64,000 nucleotides of DNA from Isurus oxyrinchus (Eukaryota). The DNA lies in the NCBI GenBank assembly GCA_026770705.1, contig JANJGN010000017.1:99634001-99698000 (forward strand). Reading direction: 5' to 3'. The translations under genes and the position numbers were made by a program. The notes under the pieces were generated by a model. That model was given only the letters and a program-made list of their open reading frames with translations. It was not told the origin of the DNA and did not search any database. Shown here one piece after another: positions 2,850 through 64,000 of the stretch (within the stretch, counting starts at the first letter, position 1; each line of letters begins with the position of its first letter).

Positions 2850-4720
2850 ACGTTGTTGGGACAGTGCAGTGATAGCAGCTCTCAACTTCGAATTCATAAT
2901 GTACCTGTCCTGGGAGTGTTTGATGGGGACAGTGTAGAAGGAGTTTTACTCTGTATCTAACCCCGTGCTGTACCTGTCCTGGGAGAGTTTGATGGGGACA
3001 CTGTAGAGGGTGTTTTACTCTGTATCTAACCCTGTGCTGTACCCGTCCTGGGAGTGTTTGATGGGGACAGTGTAGAGGGAGCTTTACTCTGTATCTAACC
3101 CAATGCTGTACCTGTCCTGGGAGTGTTTGATGGGGACATTGTAGAGGGAGTTTTACTCTGTATCTAACCCCGTGCTGTACCTGTCCTGGAAGTGTTTGAT
3201 GGGGACAGTGTAGAGGGAGCTTTACTCTGTATCTAACCCTGTGCTGTACCTGCCCTGGGAGTGTTTGATGGGGACAGTGTAAAGGGAGCTTTACTCTGTA
3301 TCTAACCTTGTGCTGTACCTGTCCTGGGAGTGTTTGATGGGGACAGTGTAGAGGGAGTTTTACTCTGTATCTAACCCCGTGCTGTACCTGTCCTGGGAGT
3401 GTTTGACAGGGACAGTGTAGAGGGAGATTTACTCTGTATCTAACCCAATGCCGTACCTGTCCTGGGAGTGTTTGATGGGGACAGTGTAGAGGGAGCTTTA
3501 CTCTGTATCTAACCCTGTGCTGTACCCGTCCTGGGAATGTTTGATGGGGACAGTGTAGAGGGAGTTTTACTCTGTATCCAACCCCGTGCTGTACCTGTCC
3601 TGGGAGTGTTTGATGGGGACAGTGTAGAGGGAGCTTTACTCTGTCTCTAACCCAATGCTGTACCTGTCCTGGGAGTGTTTGACAGGGACAGTGTAGAGGG
3701 AGCTTTACTCTGTATCTAACCTTGTGCTGTACCTGTCCTGGGAGTGTTTGATGGGGACAGTGTAGAGGGAGCTTTACTCTGTATCTAACCCTGTGCTGTA
3801 CCCGTCCTGGGAGTGTTTGATGGGGACAGTGTAGAGGGAGTTTTACTCTGTATCCAACCCCATGCTGTACCTGTCCTGGGAGTGTTTGATGGGGACAGTG
3901 TAGAGGGAGCTTTACTCTGTCTCTAACCCAATGCCGTACCTGTCCTGGGAGTGTTTGACAGGGACAGTGTAGAGGGAGCTTTACTCTGTATCTAACCTTG
4001 TGCTGTACCTGTCCTGGGAGTGTTTGATGGGGACAGTGTAGAGGGAGCTTTACTGGGTATCTAATCCCATGCTGTACCTGTCCTGCGAGTGTTTGATGGG
4101 GACAGTGTAGAGGGAGCTTTACTCTGGATCTAACCAGGTGCTGTACCTGTCCTGGGAATGTTTGACGGGTTCAGTGTAGAGGGAGATTTACTCTGAATGT
4201 AACCCCGTGCTGTATCTGTCCTGGGAATGTTTGATTGGGACAGTGTAGAAGGAGTTTTACTCTGTATCTAACCTCGTGCTGTACCTGTCCTGAGAGTGTT
4301 TGATGGGGATAATGTAGAGGGAGCTTTACTCTGTATGTAACCCCGTGCTGTATCTGGCCTGGGAGTGTTTGATGGGGACAGTGTAGAGGGAGCTTTACTC
4401 TGTATCTAACCCCGTGCTGTACCTGTCCTTGGGGTGTTTGATGGGGACAGTGTAGATGGGGCTTTACTCTGTATCTAACTCCATGCTGTATCTGGCCTGG
4501 GAGTGTTTGATTTGGGGACAGTGTAGAGGGAGCTTTACTCTGTATCTAACCAGGTGCTGTATCTGGCCTGGGAGTGTTTGATTTGAGGACAGTGTAGAGG
4601 GTGCTTCACTCTGTATCTAACTCTGTGCTGCACTTGTCTTGCAATGGTTCATGGAATGGTGTAGAGGGAGCTTTTTTCTGCATGTAACCTATGCGGTACT
4701 TGATCTGAGAGTATTTGACA
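2850..4720 (+). repeat. 69-bp tandem minisatellite, ~26 copies, degenerate edges
   Basis: Unit ctgtacctgtcctgggagtgtttgatggggacagtgtagagggagctttactctgtatctaaccccgtg. Period 69 (tacctgtcc at 2902 and 2971). Confidence 0.97.
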
Positions 4721-17052: not shown

Positions 17053-17301
17053 TATTGCAATATGCCTTTAAGAGATAGCAGCATACCATAAGAGGAAGTA
17101 AGTGTGTCATGGGATCCAGTCTTCACTTTGGCCTGTGAGCAGAACACAGCACACGCTGCCTTGCTCCTGGTGCATTCAAGCTTTCTATTCAGGCATAAAT
17201 ATATCTCATGTGCCTAGTCTAAATAAATGAACCCATAACGTGTTTACACAATCCTTTATGAGTGATGGCATGCTACTATCTCTTAAAGGGATATTACAAC
17301 A
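17053..17301. mobile_element. Family B LTR (plus) fused to the 5' end of a second family B LTR (minus) that keeps its PPT
   Basis: 17053-~17265 aligns with the LTRs at 21204 and 41468. 17260-17301 is the reverse complement of the LTR start. The minus-strand purine run aggaaaaagggga (17302-17314) abuts TGTTG. Confidence 0.8.
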
Positions 17302-17424
17302 TCCCCTTTTCCTGCCATCATCCAGGCCAAGGAGTAGACAGACCAAGCAAGAGCTACACCTTGCAGCATTACATCTGAGAGCGATGCCTTCATGAGCCGC
17401 TAATCCATCACCGGCAGAGATCAC

Positions 17425-18074: not shown

Positions 18075-18329
18075 CATGTTTGACAGACCAGTGCATACCA
18101 AATTACCTCCTCTCACCCCATCTACTCTCAGAAACTAGAGAGCAGCCTTTCAAGCTGCAAGAGAAGGTGATTAACATTGCACGATAAAAATGCAGGTACA
18201 GAATTGCCAGGTTTACAGTTGGGACGAAGATTTCCAGGATCCCACAGAAGGCACATGGCAACCAGCTGAGGTGACAAGTGATTTGTTCAGAATTAAGGTG
18301 CCGTGAAGTCATTACGTGCAAAGTTGCAT

Positions 18330-18862
18330 TGGTGAGACGTCAGTAAGGACAAATCAGGTCCATTCCAGCTCCTCAACCACTATGCAGTCCTATGGCATCA
18401 AGGACAATTGCTCAGCCAGCCCATGCTCACAAACTCAGAACACAGTGTCTAGCGTTAATTGTGATTCCACGATTGGACAGCACTTACTGAGCAGTTCCGA
18501 ATGTGCTAAGAATTACACAAACAACCCAATTTGAGATTATCAGTCAGGCTTGAAACATTGGCTCACTTATAGCTGGAGGCTGCATGTATTCATGGGCGGG
18601 GCCCTGTCCTCTGCAGACGGAGGGAGCATGTCCAGGCATTGCGCCTTTTTCAATTGTGTGAAGGGATGAGGGCAATTGTTTTCTGGTGCATTTTTCCATG
18701 GCAACACCTCAACCAATTAGTGTCCAGCTGCCAACCAATCAACACCCTTTTCTCGTGCAGTGTAGGTTGTTATTCACTTTGAGGTGTGGTATTCTTGCGT
18801 CTGTCCTGGTGAGTACAGGATGAAGGGCTTGGACAGTATGTCTCTTTTTTTTCTGCAATAAT
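18330..18862 (+). mobile_element. Penelope-like element 3' remnant (GIY-YIG endonuclease C-terminus plus pseudo-LTR)
   Basis: Frameshifted CDSTIGQHLLSSSECAKNYT/FEIISQA/LEAACIH..GPVLCRRREHVQALRLF matches Penelope endonuclease tails. The pLTR has a decayed hammerhead at 18802-18835. Confidence 0.82.
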
Positions 18863-19519
18863 CAATGTTCTCCTGGCTTCTTCTGGATCCAGTATTAAGA
18901 TCACTATTCCTGTCGCTTCACTGGCAGCTCCCTCGGGAGTTTCTTTCCCCTGCAACTTGAACCTTGGCCATCAGCTACCATCTTGTGGTCTTTCTCCACC
19001 CACCCCAAGCTCCTATTTAAGTTCTCCTGATTCAAATAGTGGGTGCGTTTTAACCTAACTACGAGTTGACACCGAGTTTAGAGTTACCCTGGCTATTCCT
19101 GTTGTTTGTCTTCATCAGCGAATACTGGATCTTTGCTTGAATTTGGCTTCCAACTCCTGTTGAGCCCACACCTCTCCATTGGCTTACACGCTGCTGTGTC
19201 TCTGACCTGCTACTCAGTTGCCTACAGTTTGAGGTAACTTTGTCTAGCCTTCAGTTCGTCACCACTGCTGCTGTTGCCCACTGACTTAATGGCTGCCTGA
19301 CAGATGTCTTGGCCCCAACTGCTGATCAGGAATTAATTACCCTGAGCTGAAGCCCATTTCTCCACCACCTCCGCTTCCTGTGCTGCCGTTTTCCTGTCCT
19401 GCAGTCAATCCTGCACGTCTTCGTTGCCATGGGAGCCCTTCCTGCAAGTGTGTCCATCCATACTCTACTCTTCTAAGCTCACTGGCCCTCGCTGCTGATC
19501 AGCCTGGACAACACTCTGT

Positions 19520-19930
19520 CCATGTTCTAAACTGACTCCCTTCCTCCCAACGCCAGCCTCATCTCACCGTGACTCTCCGGCATGATTTTTAAAGAAATGT
19601 TTTCAAATCCCTCCCTTGGCCTCATCACGCTCCCATCTAACTCCAGCCTCACAATTTTGCGAAATGCTTGGAATCTGGGGCCATCATGAGCATCTCTGAT
19701 TTTTAATCACTGCCCACCATTTGTGGCGGAGGCCCTAAGCTTTAGAAACCCTTCCCTAAATCTCTCCACTTCCCCACTTTAACTCCTGTAAACTTCCTCT
19801 TCCACCGAGGCTTTGTGCAGCTGTCTTAGAATCTCCTCGTGTGGTACCGGTGTCAAATGTTGTTGATAACTGATAAGATGCCTGTGTGGAGCCTCGGGAT
19901 GTGTTACTTTGCAAAGATTTGCTGCTGTTG
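19520..19930 (+). mobile_element. L2-type LINE 3' fragment
   Basis: aaatccctcccttggcctc, ggccctaagctttagaaacccttccctaaa, ggtgtcaaat..gataagatgcctgtgtggagcctcgggatgtgttac match the L2 3' end. Confidence 0.75.
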
Positions 19931-19984
19931 CCCCTTTTGTGGTTTCAAGAAGCTGCTTCACCTTGAGCAGCTTCCTGTCTGCAG

Positions 19985-20152
19985 GAACTGGCGGCAATGC
20001 CTGTTACATGGAAGTGATGAAGAACGTGGAGATGGTGGAAGGCGATGAGGGACAGATGTGCATTAACATGGAGTGAGGAGCGTTTGGACGATGTCAGGAC
20101 AGAGTTCGACCGTGACGTGGACCAACTTTCGTTGAATCCTGGCAAGCAGGAG
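19985..20152 (+). pseudogene. HK1: Isolated disabled hexokinase exon (C-terminal half; HK1/HK2-like)
   Basis: After ttcctgtctgcAG (phase 1) it reads (G)[33 protein letters not shown], then after a frameshift DDVRTEFDRDVDQLSLNPGKQ. This matches the hexokinase GTGSNACYME..CINMEWGAFGDNGCLDD..SLNPGKQ exon. TGA at 20074-20076 replaces Trp, DNGCL is deleted and the donor is degraded. The paralogue assignment is tentative. Confidence 0.92.
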
Positions 20153-20398
20153 GGATGGTGACTCCGGGGAGCATTCCCAAACTCCCGACCGTGTCCGATC
20201 CCGCTCGGCGCTAGTCGCCGTCATTCTGGTTGGTGCTGACAATACAGGAGCTGCAGCTTTGCTGCACCAGGGAAGTGAAACCAGTTGGAGGCGCCCAGGA
20301 TTCTTGCCTGGTGACCTGGGACTGGGAGGTGTGGAATGTCAGCTGGTTGGGTTCAGTTCATATATAAGCGATGGTTGGATGTCTTGTTGACAATGTAG

Positions 20399-20510
20399 AA
20401 ATTGCTTACATTTTGAAATAATTCTTTTACATAAGTATATAAATTGCTTATATTTTGAAGTAACTCTTTTACATAAATATATAAATTGCTTATATTTTGA
20501 AGTAACTCTA
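20399..20510 (+). repeat. 42-bp AT-rich tandem repeat, ~2.7 copies
   Basis: Unit aaattgcttatattttgaagtaactcttttacataaatatat starting at 20399, 20441 and 20483. Confidence 0.92.
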
Positions 20511-20597
20511 TATAAACAATAGTTGCTTGGGATAAGGCATTAGAAAGTCATCAGGGACCAAGCAGCAGCAAGATTCAGAGAGTTCAGGAAAGGAGGG

Positions 20598-20950
20598 GAG
20601 ATTATGAGGGGCATAGACAAGGTGGATAGGGAACAGCTGTTCCCCTTAGTTGAAGGGTCAGTCACGAGTGGACATAAGTTCAAGGTGAGGGGCAGGAGGT
20701 TTAGGGGGGGATGTGAGGAAAAAGTTTTTTACCCAGAGGGTGGTGACGGTCTGGAATGCGCTGCCTGAGAGGGTGGTGGAGACAGGTTGCCTCACATCCT
20801 TTAAAAAGTACCTGGATGAGCACTTGGCACATCATAACATGCAAGGCTATGGGCCAAGTGCTGGAAAATAGGATTAGGTAGGTAGGTCAGGTGTTTCTCA
20901 TGTGTCGGTGCAGACTCGATGGGCCTCTTCTGCACCGTGTGATTCTGTGA
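20598..20950 (+). mobile_element. Young CR1 3' fragment
   Basis: Nearly identical to 22280-22660; tail gtgtgattctgtga. Confidence 0.92.
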
Positions 20951-21484
20951 CAAGATCCCAAATGCAACCAGGAACAACAACGCAGAGTGACAATCCCACA
21001 TATCACTGTGAGCAATTAAAGAAACCTCCAGGCAAGGTTACCATGATAAGATCTGGGAATGCCAACAGATTACCTTTATGCTTCAGAGACTCCTAGATTC
21101 ACCAGTCCTATACACTTATATAATGGTAACTAAACATGAACACGCATTGTCAATAGTCATACTTCTTTGGAAGGGGGAAAGTATCTTTAAAAAGAAAGGG
21201 AGGTGTTGCAAAATGCCTTTAAGGGATAGCAGCATGACATCACTAGAAGAGAAGTGTGTCATTCAGTCCAGTCTTTGTTTTACTTTTGCCTGTGAGCAGA
21301 ACACACTTACACACACACACACCTCTGCAGTTGATGCCTTCAAGATTCTTACCTCGGCATCTATGTTCTCATGTGCCTATTCTAAATTAATAAACCCAGA
21401 ACATGTTTACTCAATCCCTGATGATGTTTACAACAGTATTACTAATAATGTTTATATCAGTATTCTAAGCTGACAGTGACTACA
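20951..21484 (+). mobile_element. Gypsy-type LTR retrotransposon 3' remnant: pol C-terminus, PPT and 3' LTR (family B)
   Basis: IRSGNANRLPLCFRDS* (stop at 21096) resembles the RSGRxxRPPxRxxD integrase tail. PPT aaaaagaaagggagg (21189-21203) lies directly before TGTTG at 21204. The LTR has AATAAA and ends ..ACTACA at ~21484. Confidence 0.78.
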
Positions 21485-22214
21485 ATGGAACAATAAGGCA
21501 GCCCACCACCACCTTCTTTGGTCAGTGATGGATGGGGAATAAAATGCCAATGTTAACCATCAGACAAGGATAAATAAAATAATTTAGAAGCTTGAATTTC
21601 AATCAGAATATCAAATGCTTTTCCTCGGTAAATTTCCTATTCCCCAAGATGACCCACCCATTAAAGAAATTCAACCATGAATTGAAAAGCGCAACAGATG
21701 ACCTTTCTTCCCCAAATGCGCAGGCAGATTTGCAAAGGGTATTTGGTTCCAACTGAAGGGGTAAAGTGGACAAGGCAGGGAGAGAATGCTGATCCACAAA
21801 AGGACAGACTTGCACAAGACTTAACATTCTAATATTCCTACTGCTGCACAACAATTTCCTTGCACTCAAAACAATTTGGTCCCTCAGAGGGTAAAATACC
21901 AGACACCACAGAGACATAAATCTTCATAGTGAGCTAATTTTAAAGATGTGAAATAAGGCTTAAAACATGTTTGGAGGATAATAGATGAGACTATTTAACA
22001 CAACAATGCAAGCATGTAACTGGAGAAATGTGCAATTTAGCTCACCGCATGAGACATCTCATTGATTTACACCCAGTTAAACTACAAAACAGGGTCTTTA
22101 TTTTCTCTCCTCTTGATCGAAGTAATTTTTTTTACTGGAATATGACTCCACTCGCACAAGCAACCCTTTAGAATCTCATCTAAAGTAGTCATTCAATCCA
22201 CTTTAGCCTAGGCT

Positions 22215-22663
22215 TTAAGTTATGAAGAGAGGTTGGATAGACTTGGGTTGTTTTCATTGGAGCAGAGAAGACTGAGGAGCAACCTGATCGAGGTGTACAA
22301 GATTATGAGGGGCATGGACAGGGTGGATAGGGAGCAGCTGTTCCCCTTAGTTGAAGGGTCAGTCACGAGTGGACATAAGTTCAAGGTGAGGGACAGGAGG
22401 TTTAAGGGGGATGTGAGGAAAAACCTTTTTACCCAGAGGGTGGTGACGGTCTGGAATGCACTGCCTGGGAGGATGGTGGAGGCGGGTTGCCTCACATCCT
22501 TTAAAAATTACCTGGATGAGCACTTGGCACATCATAACATTCAAGGCTATGGGCCAAGTGCTGGTAAATGGGATTAGGTAGGTAGGTCAGGTGTTTCTCA
22601 CGTGTCAGTGCAGACTCGATGGGCCGAAGAGCCTATTCTGCACTGTGTGATTCTGTGATTCTG
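22215..22663 (+). mobile_element. Young CR1 3' fragment
   Basis: ORF 22233..22577 LDRLGLFSLEQRRLRSNLIEVYKI..FTQRVVTVWNALP; (gattctgt)n tail. Confidence 0.95.
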
Positions 22664-23089
22664 TGTGTTTGCAATGATGACAGAACTGTCAGCATTCAGC
22701 GTGATTACTCCCCTGAAACTGACAGCAACTTCTTGAGAATGCACATGTGCAGGTAAACATGGAGATCCAGAAGATGCAGTCAGTGATTCTACCCTCCTCC
22801 ACAGCAAACTCCGTTGGAGTCCACCTCCACCGCACTGCACCCCACCCCTCAACCCCCACTCCCAGCCAATCCTCCTCCAGGAAGCAATCACGTAGAAATC
22901 ACTGGTGTGATGAGCATTTGGTCTTTTATATGGCTTGTCCCACCGTGAAAACCCTTGAAAAGGTTACACCTTTTTGAATGAGGTATCATTGTTCATAATT
23001 ATTGCTGAAGAGACTCACTTGGCCTCGAAACGCCACATTTTCCCAATGTTTCACATTTGTGGGATGTCGGATATCTTTATTTTGAGGAA

Positions 23090-36239: not shown

Positions 36240-37520
36240 CACAGAATGAAGCTCCCTCTGCACAAGCTTATAAAACATTCTCACTCAGCTACAGAATGAA
36301 TTCGATGCAGATAAGGCTCTCTCTACATTGCCCCATCAATCATGCCAAGGGTAGTCACAGCACAGGTTAGATAGAGAGCAAAGCTCCCTCTACACTGTCA
36401 CCATCAAACACTCCCAGGACAGGTACAGCACGGGGTTAGATACAGAGTAAAGCTACCTCCACAATGTCCCCATCAAACACTCCCGGGACAGGTGCAGCAC
36501 GGGGTTACATACAGAGTAAAGCTCCCTCTACACCGTCCCCATCAAAACACTCCCAGGACAAGTACAGCATGGGGTTAGATACAGAGTAAAGCTCCCTCTA
36601 CACTGTCCCCATCAAACATTCCCAGGACAGGTACAGCACGCGGTCAGATACAGAGTAAAGCTCCCTCTACACTGTCCCCATCAAACACTCCCAGGACAGG
36701 TACAGCATGGGGTTAGATATAGAGTAAAGCTCCCTCTACACTGTCCCCATCAAACACTCCCAGGGCAGGTACAGCACGGGGTTAGATACAGAGTAAAGCT
36801 CCCTCTACACTGTCCCCATCAAACACTCCCAGGACAGGTACGGCATTGGGTTAGATATAGAGTAAAGCTCCCTCTACACTGTCACCATCAAACAGTCCCA
36901 GGACAGGTACAGCACGGGGTTAGATACAGAGTAAAGCTCCCTCTACACTGTCCCCATCAAACACTCCCAGGACAGGTACAGCATGGGGTTAGATATAGAG
37001 TAAAGCTCCCTCTACACTGTCCCCATCAAACACTCCCAGGACAGGTACAGCATGGGGTTAGATATAGAGTAAAGCTCCCTCTACACTGTCCCCATCAAAC
37101 ACTCCCAGGGCAGGTACAGCACGGGGTTAGATACAGAGTAAAGCTCCCTCTACACTGTCCCCATCAAACACTCCCAGGACAGGTACAGCATGGGGTTAGA
37201 TATAGAGTAAAGCTCCCTCTACACTGTCCCCATCAAACACTCCCAGGGCAGGTACAGCACGGGGTTAGATACAGAGTAAAGCTCCCTCTACACCGTCCAC
37301 ATCAAACACTCATAGGGCAGATACAGCATGGGTTTGGATAAAGATAAAGCTACTTTTATACTGTCCACATTAAACACTTGCAAAGCAGGTACAACATAGT
37401 GTTAGATACAGAGTAAAGCTCCCTCTACACTGTCCCCATCAAACACTCCCAGGACAGGTACAGCATGGGGTTAGATACAGAGTAAAGCTCCCTCTACACT
37501 GTCCCATCAAACACTCCTCA
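36240..37520 (-). repeat. 69-bp minisatellite in reverse orientation, ~18 copies, degenerate edges
   Basis: Unit gggttagatacagagtaaagctccctctacactgtccccatcaaacactcccaggacaggtacagcacg is the reverse complement of the 2850-4720 unit. Confidence 0.97.
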
Positions 37521-38859
37521 GCCAAGTTCAACACAGAGTGAAAGTCCATGTAAGAAGCGAGGAAAAGAATAGGGGAAGTGAGATTAATTGGATAGCTTTT
37601 CAAAGAGGTGGCAAAGACTGAATGGGCCGAATGGACTTCTTCTTCTGCCCTGTAATATTCTAGGATTGGATGAACTTATGTGAGGTAAATGGGAACTTTG
37701 ACCCTGGCTGCATGTTTGAAGGAGAGCAGGTATCATGCAAATGTCCTCACCATCAAAGAGAGCAGGCGACTGGGTCCAGGTTATGTTATCTCGGCTGGAG
37801 GACAGGTGTTGCCCATCTAGCTCATTACGAAAAGCAATCTTCTTGCTTTCATCCAGATGTCCATACTGACCGAAAGGACTCTTTTTTTTTCATGATCACT
37901 GCGGGAAATCCTCTTCAACTTAAGTTAGTAATTAAAAATGGCTTGGCCTTTGAATTGGGGCCAATTGTGCATGACGCACTTTTAATTAAATTCTCTGCTT
38001 ACCTTCAGAATTGCTGCTTCAGTCTCAGGAGGTAAAAGTTAAGGAGAGAAGTGAAGCTGTTTCATGCCTGCGCTGTGAGCCGCTGTGAGAGTGTGGAGAC
38101 ATGAGCCAAGCCTGTTACCCAGGGTGCTAATCAAACAGAGGCCTGAAATAGCTTCAGAGCCTCACCCTGTGTTCATGGGGGCTCCCATGGCCTGTAGCTG
38201 TTGGGAGTGACGTCAATGAGTATGGCTATGTTGAGTATCACAGGGCCTCTAACTTTGCACTGGCCTGATAACCCTGAGCTACATTAGCTCCCTGCTCGCA
38301 GTCATGGCAACCAATTCCAGACAGTAGATCTATTCATGTTGCATCTCATTAAAGGCCTCATTGGGATGATCTCAATTAAGAGAAAATCCAACACAGTGGG
38401 GCTGATTAAGTTGAGAGCTATGAGAATTCTAGAGGAAATTCCACAGTAATATTTTTCTGATTACACCATAGGAGAAGTGCAATGATTATCCAAGTTACAT
38501 CGCTTACCTCTTTCGTCTTTCAGTCAAAATTATTGCACACCTGCATTTAACACCTTGCCCCAAAACGTTGAAAGCCACTTACACACATGATTCTCTTCCC
38601 CCTACTCTTGAATCAATCAATCCTGCCTCAGCATTGGACTGACTGTGCGATTCCACCCTTGGTTGATCAGTGCAGCCGCATGGCAAGCGTTGGTTTGGAT
38701 GTTCAGCTCCATGACCGGAGAAACCTAACGAAGGCCAGATTTTCCTTTTTTTCCTGCCCGGAGGTGCCGGGATGGGTTGGGAATGACAAATGGCACATTG
38801 ACTCGTCATGCCCGGAGACATCAGCCATTCCTTACATTTCCCAGTGACACGTGCATTGG

Positions 38860-58120: not shown

Positions 58121-59744
58121 GTTACGAGTTTTATTTGCCAGGAGGCTTGTCTAAGTTTACCAGCTGACAAGCACAAAGACAGCCACCTCAAAGATTAGCA
58201 GAGTGGAGAGACAGACACGTCTAGACACCCCGCCCATTCACGTGCATTCCTGATTTAAAATGATCTCGAACCTCCATTTCAACGACAGCACTGCATGTTG
58301 CCTGTTTCTAGCAGTTTAAAGCCTTTTCACCAAAACCTTTCCAAAAATTACCGTAATAATCAGGACTATATTGGCATTTATGCAGGGCCCTACTGTAAAT
58401 CTTGGCTCTGTTTTTTACACCTTTGGTATCCCCAATCACTGTGTCTGACTGGGGTTCAGCTCAAATGAGTGCTGACTGACCTCTGATTCACCACCCATTC
58501 TTAACTCAGGAGCTCAGTAAGTTCTGGACACAGCCAGGCACTAGCCCCCACACACGGGCACTTTACACCAGACTGATTGGCAGCGGGAACACGAGTTGAT
58601 CTTCCATTCTCCAACCAAGGGTCCCAGTGTGGTCGATTATCCCATTCAAACCGGTGCCCTGGTCAAGATCAGATATCTGACCCGAGATTGGGGTTTGAAC
58701 TTGGGGCACTCTGGGCTGAACAGCTTAATAGTTCAGCTTTTTTTTTCTGAACGTTTGATTTTAATTCCTGCGTAAATAATTAAGTGCCTGAGAGTTTCCA
58801 GCAACCTGGACTCAAATATGTTATTTCTTATGTTTCAACGGGAAACAGGCACTGAATGGAGATGTGTTTCTTTAATTCCTGCTCTTGAAGCTGGTTAAAG
58901 CTGTCAAAGGGATTTGGCTGGGACTTTAGGAAATCGGCACCACATCAGAACTGAACTCAGGAGTATTAAGAGTCATCCTTTACAAATGCTGAACTCCCAG
59001 GTTGGAATTGTGCCTGCATTAAGATGAAAACCTCAATGCTGCTGTGAGTTGACCTCCAGCTTACACGCATCCTTGCTCCCAAGTACCCAGTGGATGATTG
59101 CATTCCAATTAGGCTGACACAAAGAGCCGAAAGAGATCCCAAATGGATTGTCTGTCAATAGAAAAAAGTTAAAGGCTAAGGATCTTGAACCAAAGATTTC
59201 ACCTGCACACGTAATTAGTTTTTATATCACAACGAATATTCCAGAAGATAAGATGTACACAGCTGGGAAAGGTAACATAATCACCAGCCAACTCTCATTA
59301 ACACTTGGATCCTTAAAGGGCTCCTCATTACAAATTGCGGAATCTAACAAATTGACGCTTGATTTACTGAAAATATCTTACGTTGGGGAAAAAAAACTAA
59401 TGCACCGACATTAAAGAACAAAATAAAATGGCCCAGGTTTCATTTCATATAAAGTCCTTACCTGAAGGAAATAACTGCAGAAATATCTGTCCTGACAATG
59501 TGAGGGCAGCGGTGGGGGGAAGGATGTCAGAAATTGAGAGATCTATAAAATATGCATTAGATTGCTTTAACACTTTTCTCAAGGTTAATGGTGTTTTAGC
59601 GTGGACCAGTTTATTGAGAGAAGGCAACTGTTGCTTGATGCCAGACACGTTTACTAGCTGCGTGTCGAAATTGTTGACATTCTGGTTAATGCAGGACCAC
59701 AACATTCAGTGGAAAGGCTGGAATCGGTTTCTCCCCCTTGGTAA

Positions 59745-62700
59745 ACACCAGGGTCAGCCCCTTGGGGCGGACACCGGAGTCAGTGTCATGGGGCGGACAG
59801 CGGGGTCAGTGTCATAGGGCGGACGCCGGGGTCAGTGTCATGGGGCGGACAGTGGGGTCAGTGTCCTGGGGCGGACGCCGGGGTCAGTGTCATGGGGCAG
59901 ACGCCGGGGTCAGTATCCTGGGGCGGACACCGGGGTCAGTGTCCTGGGGCGGACACCGGGGTCAGTGTCCTGGGACGGATGCCGGGATCAGTGTCATGGG
60001 GCGGACAGCGGGGTCAGTGTCCTGGGGCGGACACCGGGGTCAGTGTCATGGGGCGGACACCGGGATCAGTGTCCTGGGGCAGACACCGGGGTCAGTGTCC
60101 TGGGACGGACGCCGGGGTCAGTGTCCTGGGGCAGACACCGGGGTCAGTGTCCTGGGACGGATGCCGGGATCAGTGTTATGGGGCGGACAGCGGGGTCAGT
60201 ATCCTGGTGTGGACGACGGGGTCAGTGTCCTGGGGCGGACGCTGGGGTCAGTGTCATGGGGCGGACACCGGGGTCAGTGTCCTGGGGCGGACACCGGGGT
60301 CAGTGTCCTGGGACGGATGCCGGGATCAGTGTTATGGGGCGGACAGCGGGGTCAGTATCCTGGTGTGGATGACGGGGTCAGTGTCCTGGGGCGGACGCCG
60401 GGGTCAGTGTCATGGGGCGGACACCGGGGTCAGTGTCATGGGGCGGACACCGGGGTCAGTGTCCTGGGGCGGACACTGGGGTCAGTGTCCTGGGACGGAT
60501 GCCGGGATCAGTGTTATGGGGCGGACAGCGGGGTCAGTATCCTGGTGTGGACGCCGGGGTCAGTGTCATGGGGCGGACACCAGGGTCAGTGTCATGGGGC
60601 GGACACCAGGGTCAGTGTCATGGGGCGGACACTGGGGTCAGTGTCCTGGGGCGGACACTGGGGTCAGTATCCTGGTGCAGACGACGGGGTCAGTGTCCTG
60701 GGGCAGACGACGGGGTCAGTGTCATGGGACGGATGCCGGGATCAGTGTCATGGGGCGGACACCAGGGTCAGTGTCATGGGGCGGACACCAGGGTCAGTGT
60801 CATGGGGCGAAAACCGGGGTCAGTGTCCTGGGGCGGACACCGGGGTCAGTGTCCTGGGGCGGACACCGGGGTCAGTGTCCTGGGGCGGACACCGGGGTCA
60901 GTGTCCTGGGACGGATGCCGGGATCAGTGTCATGGGGCAGACAGCGGGGTCAGTATCCTGGTGCAGACGACGGGGTCAGTGTCCTGGGACAGACGACGGG
61001 GTCAGTGTCATGGGGCGGACACTGGGGTCAGTGTCATGGGGCGGACACTGGGGTCAGTGTCATGGGGCGGACACTGGGGTCAGTATCCTGGTGCAGACGA
61101 CGGGGTCAGTGTCCTGGGGCAGACGACGGGGTCAGTGTCCTGGGGCAGACGACGGGGTCAGTGTCATGGGGCGGACAGCGGGGTCAGTGTCCTGGTGCGG
61201 ACGACGGGGTCAGTGTCCTGGGGCGGACACCGGGGTCAGTGTCCTGGGACGGACACCGGGGTCAGTGTCATGGGGCGGACAGCGGGGTCAGTATCCTGGG
61301 GCAGACACCGGGGTCAGTGTCCTGGGGCGGACACCGGGGTCAGTGTCCTGGGGCGGACGCCGGGATCAGTGTCATGGGGCAGACGACGGGGTCAGTGTCC
61401 TGGTGCGGACGCCAGGGTCAGTGTCATGGGGCGGACAGCGGGGTCAGTGTCCTGGGGCAGACGCCAGGGTCAGTGTCATGGGGTGGACAGCGGGGTCAGT
61501 GTCCTGCGGCAGACTCCGGGGTCAGTGTCCTGGGGCAGACATCAGGGTCAGTGTCCTGGGGCGGACATGGGGGTCAATGTCCTGGGGCACACGCCAGGTT
61601 CAGTGTCCCGAGGCGGACATGGGGGTCAATGTCCTGGGGCACACGCCAGGTTCAGTGTCCCGAGGCGGAAGCTGGGGTCAGTGTCCTGGGGCGGACATGG
61701 GGGTCAATGTCCTGGGGCACACGCCGGGTTCAGTGTCCCGAGGCGGAAGCTGGGGTCAGTGTCATGGGGCGGACACTGGGGTCAGTATCCTGGTGCAGAC
61801 GACGGGGTCAGTGTCATGGGGCGGACGCCGGGGTCAGTGTCATGGGGCGGACGCCGGGGTCAGTGTCATGGGGCGGACGCTGGGGTCAGTGTCCTGGGGC
61901 AGACACCAGGGTCAGTGTCATGGGGTGGATGTGGGGTCAGTGTCATTGGGCGGACAGGTGGGTCAGTATCCTGGGGCGGATGCCGGGGTCAGTGTCATGG
62001 GGCGGACAGCGGGGTCAGTGTCCTGGGGCGGACACTGGGGTCAGTGTCATGGGGTGGACAGCGGGGTCAGTGTCCTGGGGCGGACGCCGGGGTCAGTGTC
62101 CTGGGGCGGACGCCGAGGTCAGTGTCCTGGGGCGGACGCCGGGGTCAGTGTCCTGGTGCAGACGACGGGGTCAGTGTCATGGGGCAGACAGCGGGGTCAG
62201 TGTCCTGGTGCGGACGACGGGGTCAGTGTCTGGGGCGGACGCCGGGGTCAGTGTCATGGGGCGGATGCCGGGGGTGTCCTGGGGCGGACGCCGGGGTCAG
62301 TGTCCTGCGGCAGACTCCGGGGTCAGTGTCCTGGGGCAGACATCAGGGTCAGTGTCCTGGGGCGGACATGGGGGTCAATGTCCTGGGGCACACGCCAGGT
62401 TCAGTGTCCCGAGGCGGAAGCTGGGGTCAGTGTCCTGGGGCGGACATGGGGGTCAATGTCCTGGGGCACACGCCGGGTTCAGTGTCCCGAGGCGGAAGCT
62501 GGGGTCAGTGTCCTGGGGCGGACATGGGGGTCAATGTCCTGGGGCACACGCCTGAGTCAGTGTCCCGGGGCGGAAGCCGGGGTCAGTGTCTTGGGGCGGA
62601 CACCGGGGTCAGTGTCCTGGGGCGGACAGCGGGGTCAGTGTCCTGGTGCGGATGACGGGGTCAGTGTCTGGGGCGGACGCCGGGGTCAGTGTCATGGGGT

Positions 62701-63821
62701 GGACAGCGGGGTCAGTATCCTGGGGCGGATGCCGGGGTCAGTGTCCTGGGGCGGATGTTGGGGGTGTCCTGGGGCGGACGCCGGGGTCAGTGTCCTGCGG
62801 CAGACTCCGGGGTCAGTGTCCTGGGGCAGACATCGGGGTCAGTGTCCTGGGGCGGACATGGGAGTCAATGTCCTGGGGCACACGCCGGAGTCAGTGTCCC
62901 GGGGCGGAAGCCGGGGTCAGTGTCTTGGGGCGGACGCCGGGGTCAGTGTTCTGGGGCGGACAGCGGGGTCAGTGTCATGGGGCGGATGCCGGGGTCAGTG
63001 TCCTGGGGCGGATGTTGGGGTCAGTGTCCTGGGGCGGACATGGAGGTCAATGTCCTGGGGCACTCGCCGGGGTCAGTGTCCCGGGGCGGAAGCTGGGGTC
63101 AGTGTCCTGGGGCGGACATGGGGGTCAATGTCCTGGGGCACACGCCGGGGTCAGTGTCCTGGGGCTGATGCTGGGGGTGTCCTGGGGCGGACGCCGGGGT
63201 CAGTGTCCTGGGGCGGATGTTGGGGGTGTCCTGGGGCGGACGCCGGTGTCAGTGTCTTGGGGCGGATGTTGGGGGTGTCCTGCGGCAGACTCTGGGGTCA
63301 GTGTCCTGGGGCAGATACCGGGGTCAGTGTCCTGGGGCGGACATGGGGGTCAATGTCCTGGGGCACACGCCGGGGTCAGTGTCCCGGGGCGGAAGCCGGG
63401 GTCAGTGTCCTGGGGCGGACATGGGGGTCAATGTCCTGGGGCACACGCCGGGGTCAGTGTCCCGGGGCGGAAGCCGGGGTCAGTGTCCTGGGGCGGACAT
63501 GGGGGTCAATGTCCTGGGGCACACGCCGGGGTCAGTGTCCCGGGGCGGAAGCCGGGGTCAGTGTCTTGGGGCGGACGCCGGGGTCAGTGTCCTGGGGCGG
63601 ACATGGGGGTCAATGTCCTGGGGCACACGCCGGGGTCAGTGTCCCGGGGCGGAAGCCGGGGTCAGTGTCTTGGGGCGGACGCCGGGGTCAGTGTCCTGGG
63701 GCGGACATGGGGGTCAATGTCCTGGGGCACACGCCGGGGTCAGTGTCCCGGGGCGGAAGCCGGGGTCAGTGTCCTGGGACGGACATGGGGGTCAATGTCC
63801 TGGGGCGGACATGGGGGTCAG
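59745..63821 (+). repeat. 26-bp G-rich minisatellite, ~155 copies, with a distal 78-bp higher-order repeat
   Basis: Unit ggggtcagtgtc(c/a)tggggcggac(a/g)cc; period 26 (gtcagtgtc at 59831 and 59857). Confidence 0.98.
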
Positions 63822-64000
63822 CATTACTTCATTCTACACTAGCAAGTGACTATTTTATGATGTAGTTTGAAAGATAACCAGACTGCTTCAGAGGAGGATG
63901 GGCTGTGTGACAAGATGCTGGAATCCTAAATATTGCCTTGATATTAAAGCTGTTGGGGTATGGTGTGTGGCTTCAGATCTCCTTCGCTGGCAAGGACTAC

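Follow-up and report, generated by a model that had tools for sequence, protein, structure and literature searches.

How does a single hexokinase exon, with intron sequence on either side, come to lie by itself in a stretch of DNA? The question was raised by a preliminary description of the window (the whole 64-kb stretch that was analysed), which offered two kinds of answer: the exon would be either the last trace of a lost hexokinase paralogue or a genomic fragment that was moved here by DNA-level capture or 3' transduction.

A broken exon and its parent gene

The hexokinase peptide is read on the + strand from 19985, right after the acceptor CTGTCTGCAG. It aligns to human HK1 680-708 (E 4.5e-22) and matches the Pfam family Hexokinase_2 with a score over the cut-off, and thus both the exon block and the good acceptor that had been described before it are confirmed. 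The acceptor is intact; the exon itself is broken. It carries a premature TGA (TGG>TGA) at 20074-76, as had been claimed, a 17-bp deletion just after 20084, and one extra G near 20149. The splice donor is lost at 20153-54 (GT>GG), where CAG AG/GT in the parent gene, with a slash at the exon end, reads CAG GAG/GG in the window. The frameshifting deletion that had been noticed earlier is real, but the residues lost are GDDGCL, not DNGCL, and the letters common to its two ends are TGG (3 bp), not the proposed TGGA. The CpG richness of the block is likewise real, with nine CpG in the 168-bp exon copy and five in the parent exon, and 57 against 38 over the whole copied block; it derives from the parent, with differential decay and gains by A>G adding to it.

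Contigs of run X1 (organism A) run across both the stop and the deletion with 0 gaps; the run is possibly the assembly's own sample and offers contigs rather than raw reads. The lesions are therefore not assembly slips, and assembly error is ruled out as their source. The exon copy is a dead pseudo-exon, with no sign of function. A tblastn search with 15 exon pieces of the parent found no second hexokinase exon in the 64-kb window, in agreement with the earlier remark on missing neighbours; the extra match that it returned spans only 17 residues (E 0.009). There is also no host gene among the 144 of 357 stop-to-stop frames of non-repeat window DNA that were compared with Pfam, none of which scored over the cut-off.

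Five matches came from a DNA search of the organism's own genome: the window itself, a 90% match (query 8-461), and three paralogous exons at 75-79%. The 90% match falls inside an intact two-domain hexokinase gene on the + strand at G000:C17:115.06-115.11 Mb, 15.4 Mb from the window copy, and the suggested search for a parent locus has thus found one. Frames are open within the exon bounds in all 15 parent exon pieces examined, exons 1 and 18 not being among them; the exon numbering used here presumes that a single exon precedes the first match and that the gene has an 18-exon layout. Two exons of the N-terminal half score highest on HK2 (187.9 vs. 171.2 bits, and 198.3 vs. 194.8), one exon of the C-terminal half scores slightly highest on HK1 (127.5 vs. 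124.9 for HK2), and HKDC1 is absent from the matches of the exons scored. Since two of the three exons score highest on HK2, the gene is labelled HK2-like.

Apart from exons on C8, all hexokinase-family matches are on a single chromosome-scale contig, C17, at 84.2-85.0, 102.57, and 115.06-115.11 Mb. The C17 loci comprise two two-domain genes in tandem on the - strand, one glucokinase-like gene, and the HK2-like parent; the loci other than the parent are presumably HK1, HKDC1, and GCK. On C8 (108881955-108882905; L028:4955-5905), three consecutive hexokinase exons with their introns show 50-71% amino-acid identity to the parent exons, and one conserved Gly is changed to Arg. No further hexokinase exons were found in 30 kb at this trio, no DNA-level parent for it was found in the genome, and C8 is without a Hexokinase_2 match. 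The trio is a better candidate than the window exon for the remnant of a lost paralogue.

Anatomy of the insertion

Window 18409-20948 is a 2.5-kb (2.54 kb) copy of parent exon 15 and portions of introns 14 and 15 (Table 1). When searched against the 100 kb around the parent, it forms a single collinear block in which window 18411-20948 equals parent 115105618-115108175. BLAST identity is 85.5% over 2626 columns; 226 substitutions at 2470 aligned sites give a p-distance of 9.1% (91% identical, introns included). DNA searches of the genome found no third copy of the block, and the only two full-length copies of the intron segment 18886..19984 that were found are those of window and parent. That a fragment left a parent locus for this site together with flanking intron sequence, as the preliminary description had considered, is therefore borne out.

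Table 1. Features of the insertion and of the repeat that it splits (window positions)
Feature	Position	Strand	Basis
5' half of older high-copy repeat, split by the insertion	18075..18402	+	halves joined at family loci
Left target-site duplication, GACAA (GACAAG in organism B)	18403..18408	+	empty sites
5'-truncated insert start, repeat arm from parent intron 14	18409..18885	+	equals parent 115105616-115106093
Remaining copied intron 14 with intact acceptor	18886..19984	+	alignment to parent
Broken copy of hexokinase exon 15 (C-terminal half)	19985..20152	+	alignment to parent, tblastn, X1 contigs
Copied intron 15 up to CR1 fragment	20153..20599	+	alignment to parent
3' piece of the CR1 of parent intron 15 (end of ORF2, 3' hairpin, octamer tail)	20600..20948	+	5' junction common with parent's CR1
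Right target-site duplication, GACAAG	20949..20954	+	empty sites
3' half of split older repeat	20955..21424	+	halves joined at family loci

The insertion interrupts an older high-copy repeat. At nine out of ten family loci, both halves of this repeat are joined and GACAA(G) occurs once (..GAG GACAAG AT..), which is the empty site. In the window, GACAA(G) stands on both sides of the insert as a duplication of 5-6 bp; organism B contigs have G at 18408, which makes the duplication 6 bp. The split repeat (window 17055-17423 and 18075-21424) contains inverted segments, and another incomplete copy lies nearby.

The 5' end of the insert lies inside a repeat that runs on upstream in the parent, as expected of a truncation. 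At the first insert bases, from 18409, parent TAC reads TGC in the copy (by eye). This repeat arm may be Penelope-like, judging from a motif; a Pfam search of the arm in three frames gave no family past E 0.05 and none of relevance to the RT and GIY-YIG domains of such elements. Further into copied intron 14, an old degenerate repeat occupies about 19680-19910, and copied intron 15 has a 42-bp stretch after 20409 that is missing from the parent. The old repeat is what had been called an L2 tail ending at ~19930 and directly preceding the exon block. The repeat is indeed there, but it is a passenger, because it sits in the same place in the parent intron, where the preliminary description had advised looking for it. 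L2-driven capture is thus ruled out, the repeat being part of the cargo.

At its 3' end, the insert stops exactly where a CR1 tail does (GTGATTCTGT/GA), and copy and parent diverge after GTGATTCTGT. The CR1 fragment, 349 bp in length, lies in parent intron 15 in sense orientation to the hexokinase gene. Its 5' junction is identical in window and parent, and the tail length matches as well; given the common junction, the window CR1 is the parent's own intronic copy. The insert end fits the terminal octamer of CR1, which is given as ATTCTRTG or TTCTGTGA in the available parts of two papers (PMC2612034, PMC8665684), and in the window the octamer TTCTGT-GA is completed by the first GA of the right target-site duplication. 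A hairpin precedes the octamer: the last 76 nt of the parent CR1 fold at -22.9 kcal/mol (raw energy). After its CR1 tail, the parent today reads CTGTT, not GA. The CR1 parts of copy and parent have only two shared-derived sites out of 347, the last at 20782, and the final 166 bp is without parent-specific markers and so not assignable to the parent.

Among 30 copies of the CR1 family, 16 were evaluable for target duplications; as raw counts, four have 5-6 bp, five have 4 bp, and seven have none. Family copies hold open frames of up to 315 aa. One of the three scanned gives a match to RVT_1 (E 9e-5), which falls under the cut-off because only the end of the domain is present. A young CR1 copy, 95-96% like many genome copies, lies at window 22207-22665, 1.3 kb downstream of the insert. 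It was considered as a source and rejected: although it is 94% like the parent's CR1, it extends further 5' and has other flanks, and is an independent copy of the family.

The block is not a classical processed pseudogene, as had been recognised, since it keeps sequence of introns 14 and 15, has no poly(A), and has exons that are not joined. The retention of introns here would reflect an unspliced RNA template rather than a DNA template. The 3' transduction that had been proposed is excluded: the captured DNA is 5' of the mobilising element, the parent sequence beyond the tail was left uncopied, and poly(A) is missing.

A strand-specific A>G cluster and its age

Within the first 425 bp of the alignment (the arm), 30 of the 127 parental A read G in the copy, while T>C accounts for five of 118. 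The other 2045 sites show no skew (A>G 30/459, T>C 35/611). Between arm and rest, A>G differs with p 4e-7 and T>C with p 0.66; GC-biased conversion is ruled out, as T>C is not raised. When the arm changes are polarised with 28 family copies as outgroup, 41 are copy-derived, 11 parent-derived, and seven ambiguous. The copy-derived changes comprise 25 A>G and two T>C (binomial p 6e-6), at 18415-18826. Against the family majority, the A>G rate in the copy is 31/122; the highest among 28 controls, on either strand, is 0.087.

The presumably edited positions have neighbours of a particular kind. A 5' G is found at none of the 25 edited A, compared with 16 of 100 other A (p 0.04), and a 5' U or A at 20/25 compared with 45/100 (p 0.002); a 3' G is seen at 8/25 vs. 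15/100 (p 0.08), which is a trend only. In the parent, a second copy of the arm repeat, inverted and 78-79% identical, lies ~0.5 kb upstream; exon 14 precedes it, which places it in the same intron 14 as the arm. A minimum-energy prediction folds the parent pre-mRNA into a hairpin with 476 long-range pairs, in which each of the 25 edited A pairs with the upstream partner, vs. 74/100 of the others (p 0.002). Since the partner was left uncopied, no transcript but that of the parent could have formed the duplex.

Clustered A>G changes in inverted-repeat duplexes, depleted of 5' G, are described as ADAR hyper-editing in the accessible part of PMC5663115. The preference for a 5' U or A also agrees with that description of ADAR. 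The cluster in the arm, being one-strand, duplex-confined, and depleted of 5' G, matches this footprint, and its restriction to one strand and to the hairpin suggests that the copy passed through RNA. There is counter-evidence. The upstream partner in the parent (C17:115104490-115105118, L006) shows A>G at 15/153 and T>C at 5/156 on the sense strand, a skew just above the range of the 28 controls (9.8% vs. 25% in the copy), and the parent's own arm has seven A>G vs. two T>C. A weaker sense-strand bias therefore exists there, and one might guess at transcription-linked mutation.

Both the copy and the parent version are present in organism B, a related species, where contigs span the 5' junction of the insert in three of four runs. 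At the 25 edited sites, 12 are readable in organism B and 10 of these have G; the exceptions are 18619 (A), a CpG-forming site, and 18656 (C). The remaining 13 are masked by other repeat copies, and the two covering contigs have only six and five unlisted differences. Organism B has six further A>G that are absent from the window, three of them CpG-forming, which may be edits since lost in the window lineage. Its copy is without the 17-bp deletion.

Outside the arm, copy and parent are at a distance of 0.087, and the copies of the two species differ by 0.03-0.04, which makes the insertion roughly two to three times older than the species split. With no more than two shared-derived positions among the 347 of the CR1, little time passed between the arrival of this CR1 in the parent and the making of the copy. 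The CR1 family was likely active at that time.

Routes to the copy

For this single locus, the best account, with a probability of about 0.82, is that 18409-20948 arose by CR1-primed 5' transduction of an unspliced, ADAR-hyper-edited HK2-like pre-mRNA. It would explain an observed anatomy, observed endpoints, duplication, and skew, the sharing across two species, and a predicted hairpin by supposing germline transcription, ADAR action, binding of CR1 protein in trans, octamer priming, and truncation in the duplex.

The starting material is present in the parent: intron 15 contains a CR1 3' fragment in sense orientation, and intron 14 has another repeat in two copies that are inverted to each other. 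Judging from the editing pattern, the parent RNA, to which the element is sense, would have been transcribed in the germline. The intron 14 repeats are predicted to fold into a hairpin of about 480 pairs, and there ADAR may have converted about a quarter of the adenosines of the 3' arm (31/122 A>G) in one germline transcript. A CR1 protein from an active copy would then have bound the intronic hairpin and octamer in trans and nicked the target, with priming at the octamer possibly aided by a 2-base match to the target, a match that rests on the family octamer. Reverse transcription would have run 2.54 kb upstream and halted inside the duplex, inosine being read as G. Afterwards, the insert is flanked by the 5-6 bp target duplication, and the exon has acquired a stop and a frameshift, while its donor has been broken. 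That an edited RNA intermediate existed, whichever reverse transcriptase or initiation was involved, is close to certain, because a template switch or another reverse transcriptase keeps the RNA and editing steps.

Such a switch is the first alternative. Reverse transcription would have begun with a normal CR1 RNA as template and, at the part homologous to the intronic CR1, would have moved over to the edited HK2-like pre-mRNA. The scarcity of shared-derived CR1 sites, with a final stretch not assignable to the parent, would suit this, as would a parent without the GA after its tail that would pair with the target. However, one more event is needed, the 5' junction and tail length of the CR1 equal those of the parent, and SINEs are mobilised in trans by a common tail alone, according to the available part of PMC3747384. 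A switch is thus unlikely. An insertion of an edited pre-mRNA piece by RNA-templated repair or by a relaxed L1/Tx1-type enzyme, with the end on a CR1 tail a coincidence, would account for the introns, the editing, and the short duplication without CR1 specificity. It is quite improbable given that poly(A) is missing, that a 2.5-kb block ends on the octamer with single-base precision, and that the duplication length suits the CR1 family.

Three features speak against the DNA-level capture of the preliminary description: an endpoint on the CR1 tail, a short target-site duplication, and an A>G cluster that is restricted to one strand and to the hairpin. In a fuller version, break repair or repeat recombination would have duplicated the DNA and A>G changes would have followed by transcription-linked mutation at the new site. 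Both ends do lie in repeats, the two loci share a chromosome at 15.4 Mb, a slight excess of sense A>G is present in the parent's repeats, and another piece of the window has 5 vs. 1. Yet what flanks the insert is a single unrelated repeat, cut in two and with a clean duplication, and not a pair of recombination partners; the skew is limited to 425 of 2470 sites and follows a hairpin whose other arm is absent from the window; and most readable edited sites are older than the split from organism B. This leaves a DNA-level duplication very improbable. The lost paralogue, suggested by an intron-flanked exon without neighbours, is hardly credible and is excluded by an intact parent that is 91% identical at aligned sites, in introns and young repeats too (paralogues reach 75-79%, in the exon only), and by sharp insertion ends within a repeat.

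The closest known relatives of a CR1-primed 5' transduction are those of SVA and, rarely, L1 in human, as described in the available part of PMC4859970. Upstream host sequence is carried, a target duplication is made, and the 5' end is truncated; the common mechanism is an element 3' end in a transcript begun further upstream. Unlike SVA and L1, the window element is a 349-bp CR1 fragment without a promoter or full ORF, recognition is proposed to be by hairpin and octamer rather than poly(A), and the cargo is unspliced, a coding exon plus both splice sites. Stringent LINE/SINE pairs, such as shark HE1/HER1 and eel UnaSINE/UnaL2, offer a second parallel in the part of PMC3747384 that was available, in which mobilisation in trans depends on the tail. 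There, too, a non-autonomous RNA is mobilised in trans via the 3' tail of a CR1/L2-type LINE. Here, in contrast to SINEs, it would be a protein-coding pre-mRNA that gained its tail by intronic insertion, leaving one copy and no amplification. Like retrocopies and partially processed retrogenes (PMC5470649, in part), the insert is an apparently RNA-derived gene fragment, dead on or after arrival; unlike them, it has no poly(A) and its exons are not joined.

The footprint has its own precedents. As in ADAR hyper-editing of intronic inverted repeats, a several-hundred-base A>G cluster is depleted of 5' G (PMC5663115, in part), but the changes are in genomic DNA and inherited in two species. APOBEC editing of DNA has been fossilised as G>A in LTR retrotransposons, and there the deaminase footprint is likewise recognised by its strand bias in genomic copies, with the family majority as a filter; the present case differs in being A>G, in a host pre-mRNA, and in a non-LTR carrier, and ADAR goes unmentioned in the available part of that paper (PMC4866542). 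No edited genomic copy or CR1 transduction is described in the accessible parts of PMC5192505 or PMC5381603. A search covering few subscription journals found no published CR1 5' transduction that carried a coding exon and no ADAR edits that had become fixed in this way; such absence is weak evidence.

CR1 is held to make few gene copies, as it needs its own RNA tail, and its sequence-specific recognition limits which cellular RNAs are copied (PMC5470649, in part). An intronic CR1 fragment provides such a tail. The case thus suggests a way round this limit, a route to exon shuffling that resembles DNA duplication in CR1-dominated genomes, and it is a datable instance in which RNA editing apparently became inherited DNA sequence. 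Whether any young, sense intronic CR1 tail makes a host pre-mRNA a CR1 substrate, as a general route in CR1-rich genomes, is a more tentative idea, somewhat less probable than its opposite. If true, the route would move exons with their splice sites and make ADAR edits part of the germline sequence; retrocopy screens that demand intron loss would have overlooked its products, which would jointly form a fossil record of germline RNA editing.

Several other repeats were encountered. Two loci on C4 (L085 and L087, at 196.42 and 202.22 Mb) are 99% identical over 3.45 kb in inverted orientation. They were considered as a second transduction, which is ruled out by 99% identity over the whole length; they are a recent segmental duplication or an assembly duplicate. 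Within the window, a 69-bp tandem unit forms two opposite arrays, at 2900-4700 (-) and 36300-37540 (+), with open frames of 450 and 273 codons, and the unit recurs near the parent gene and in L003. A degenerate tandem array with a GC content of 65-70% occupies window 59700-63865, where all three + frames are open for hundreds of codons, the longest for 1391.
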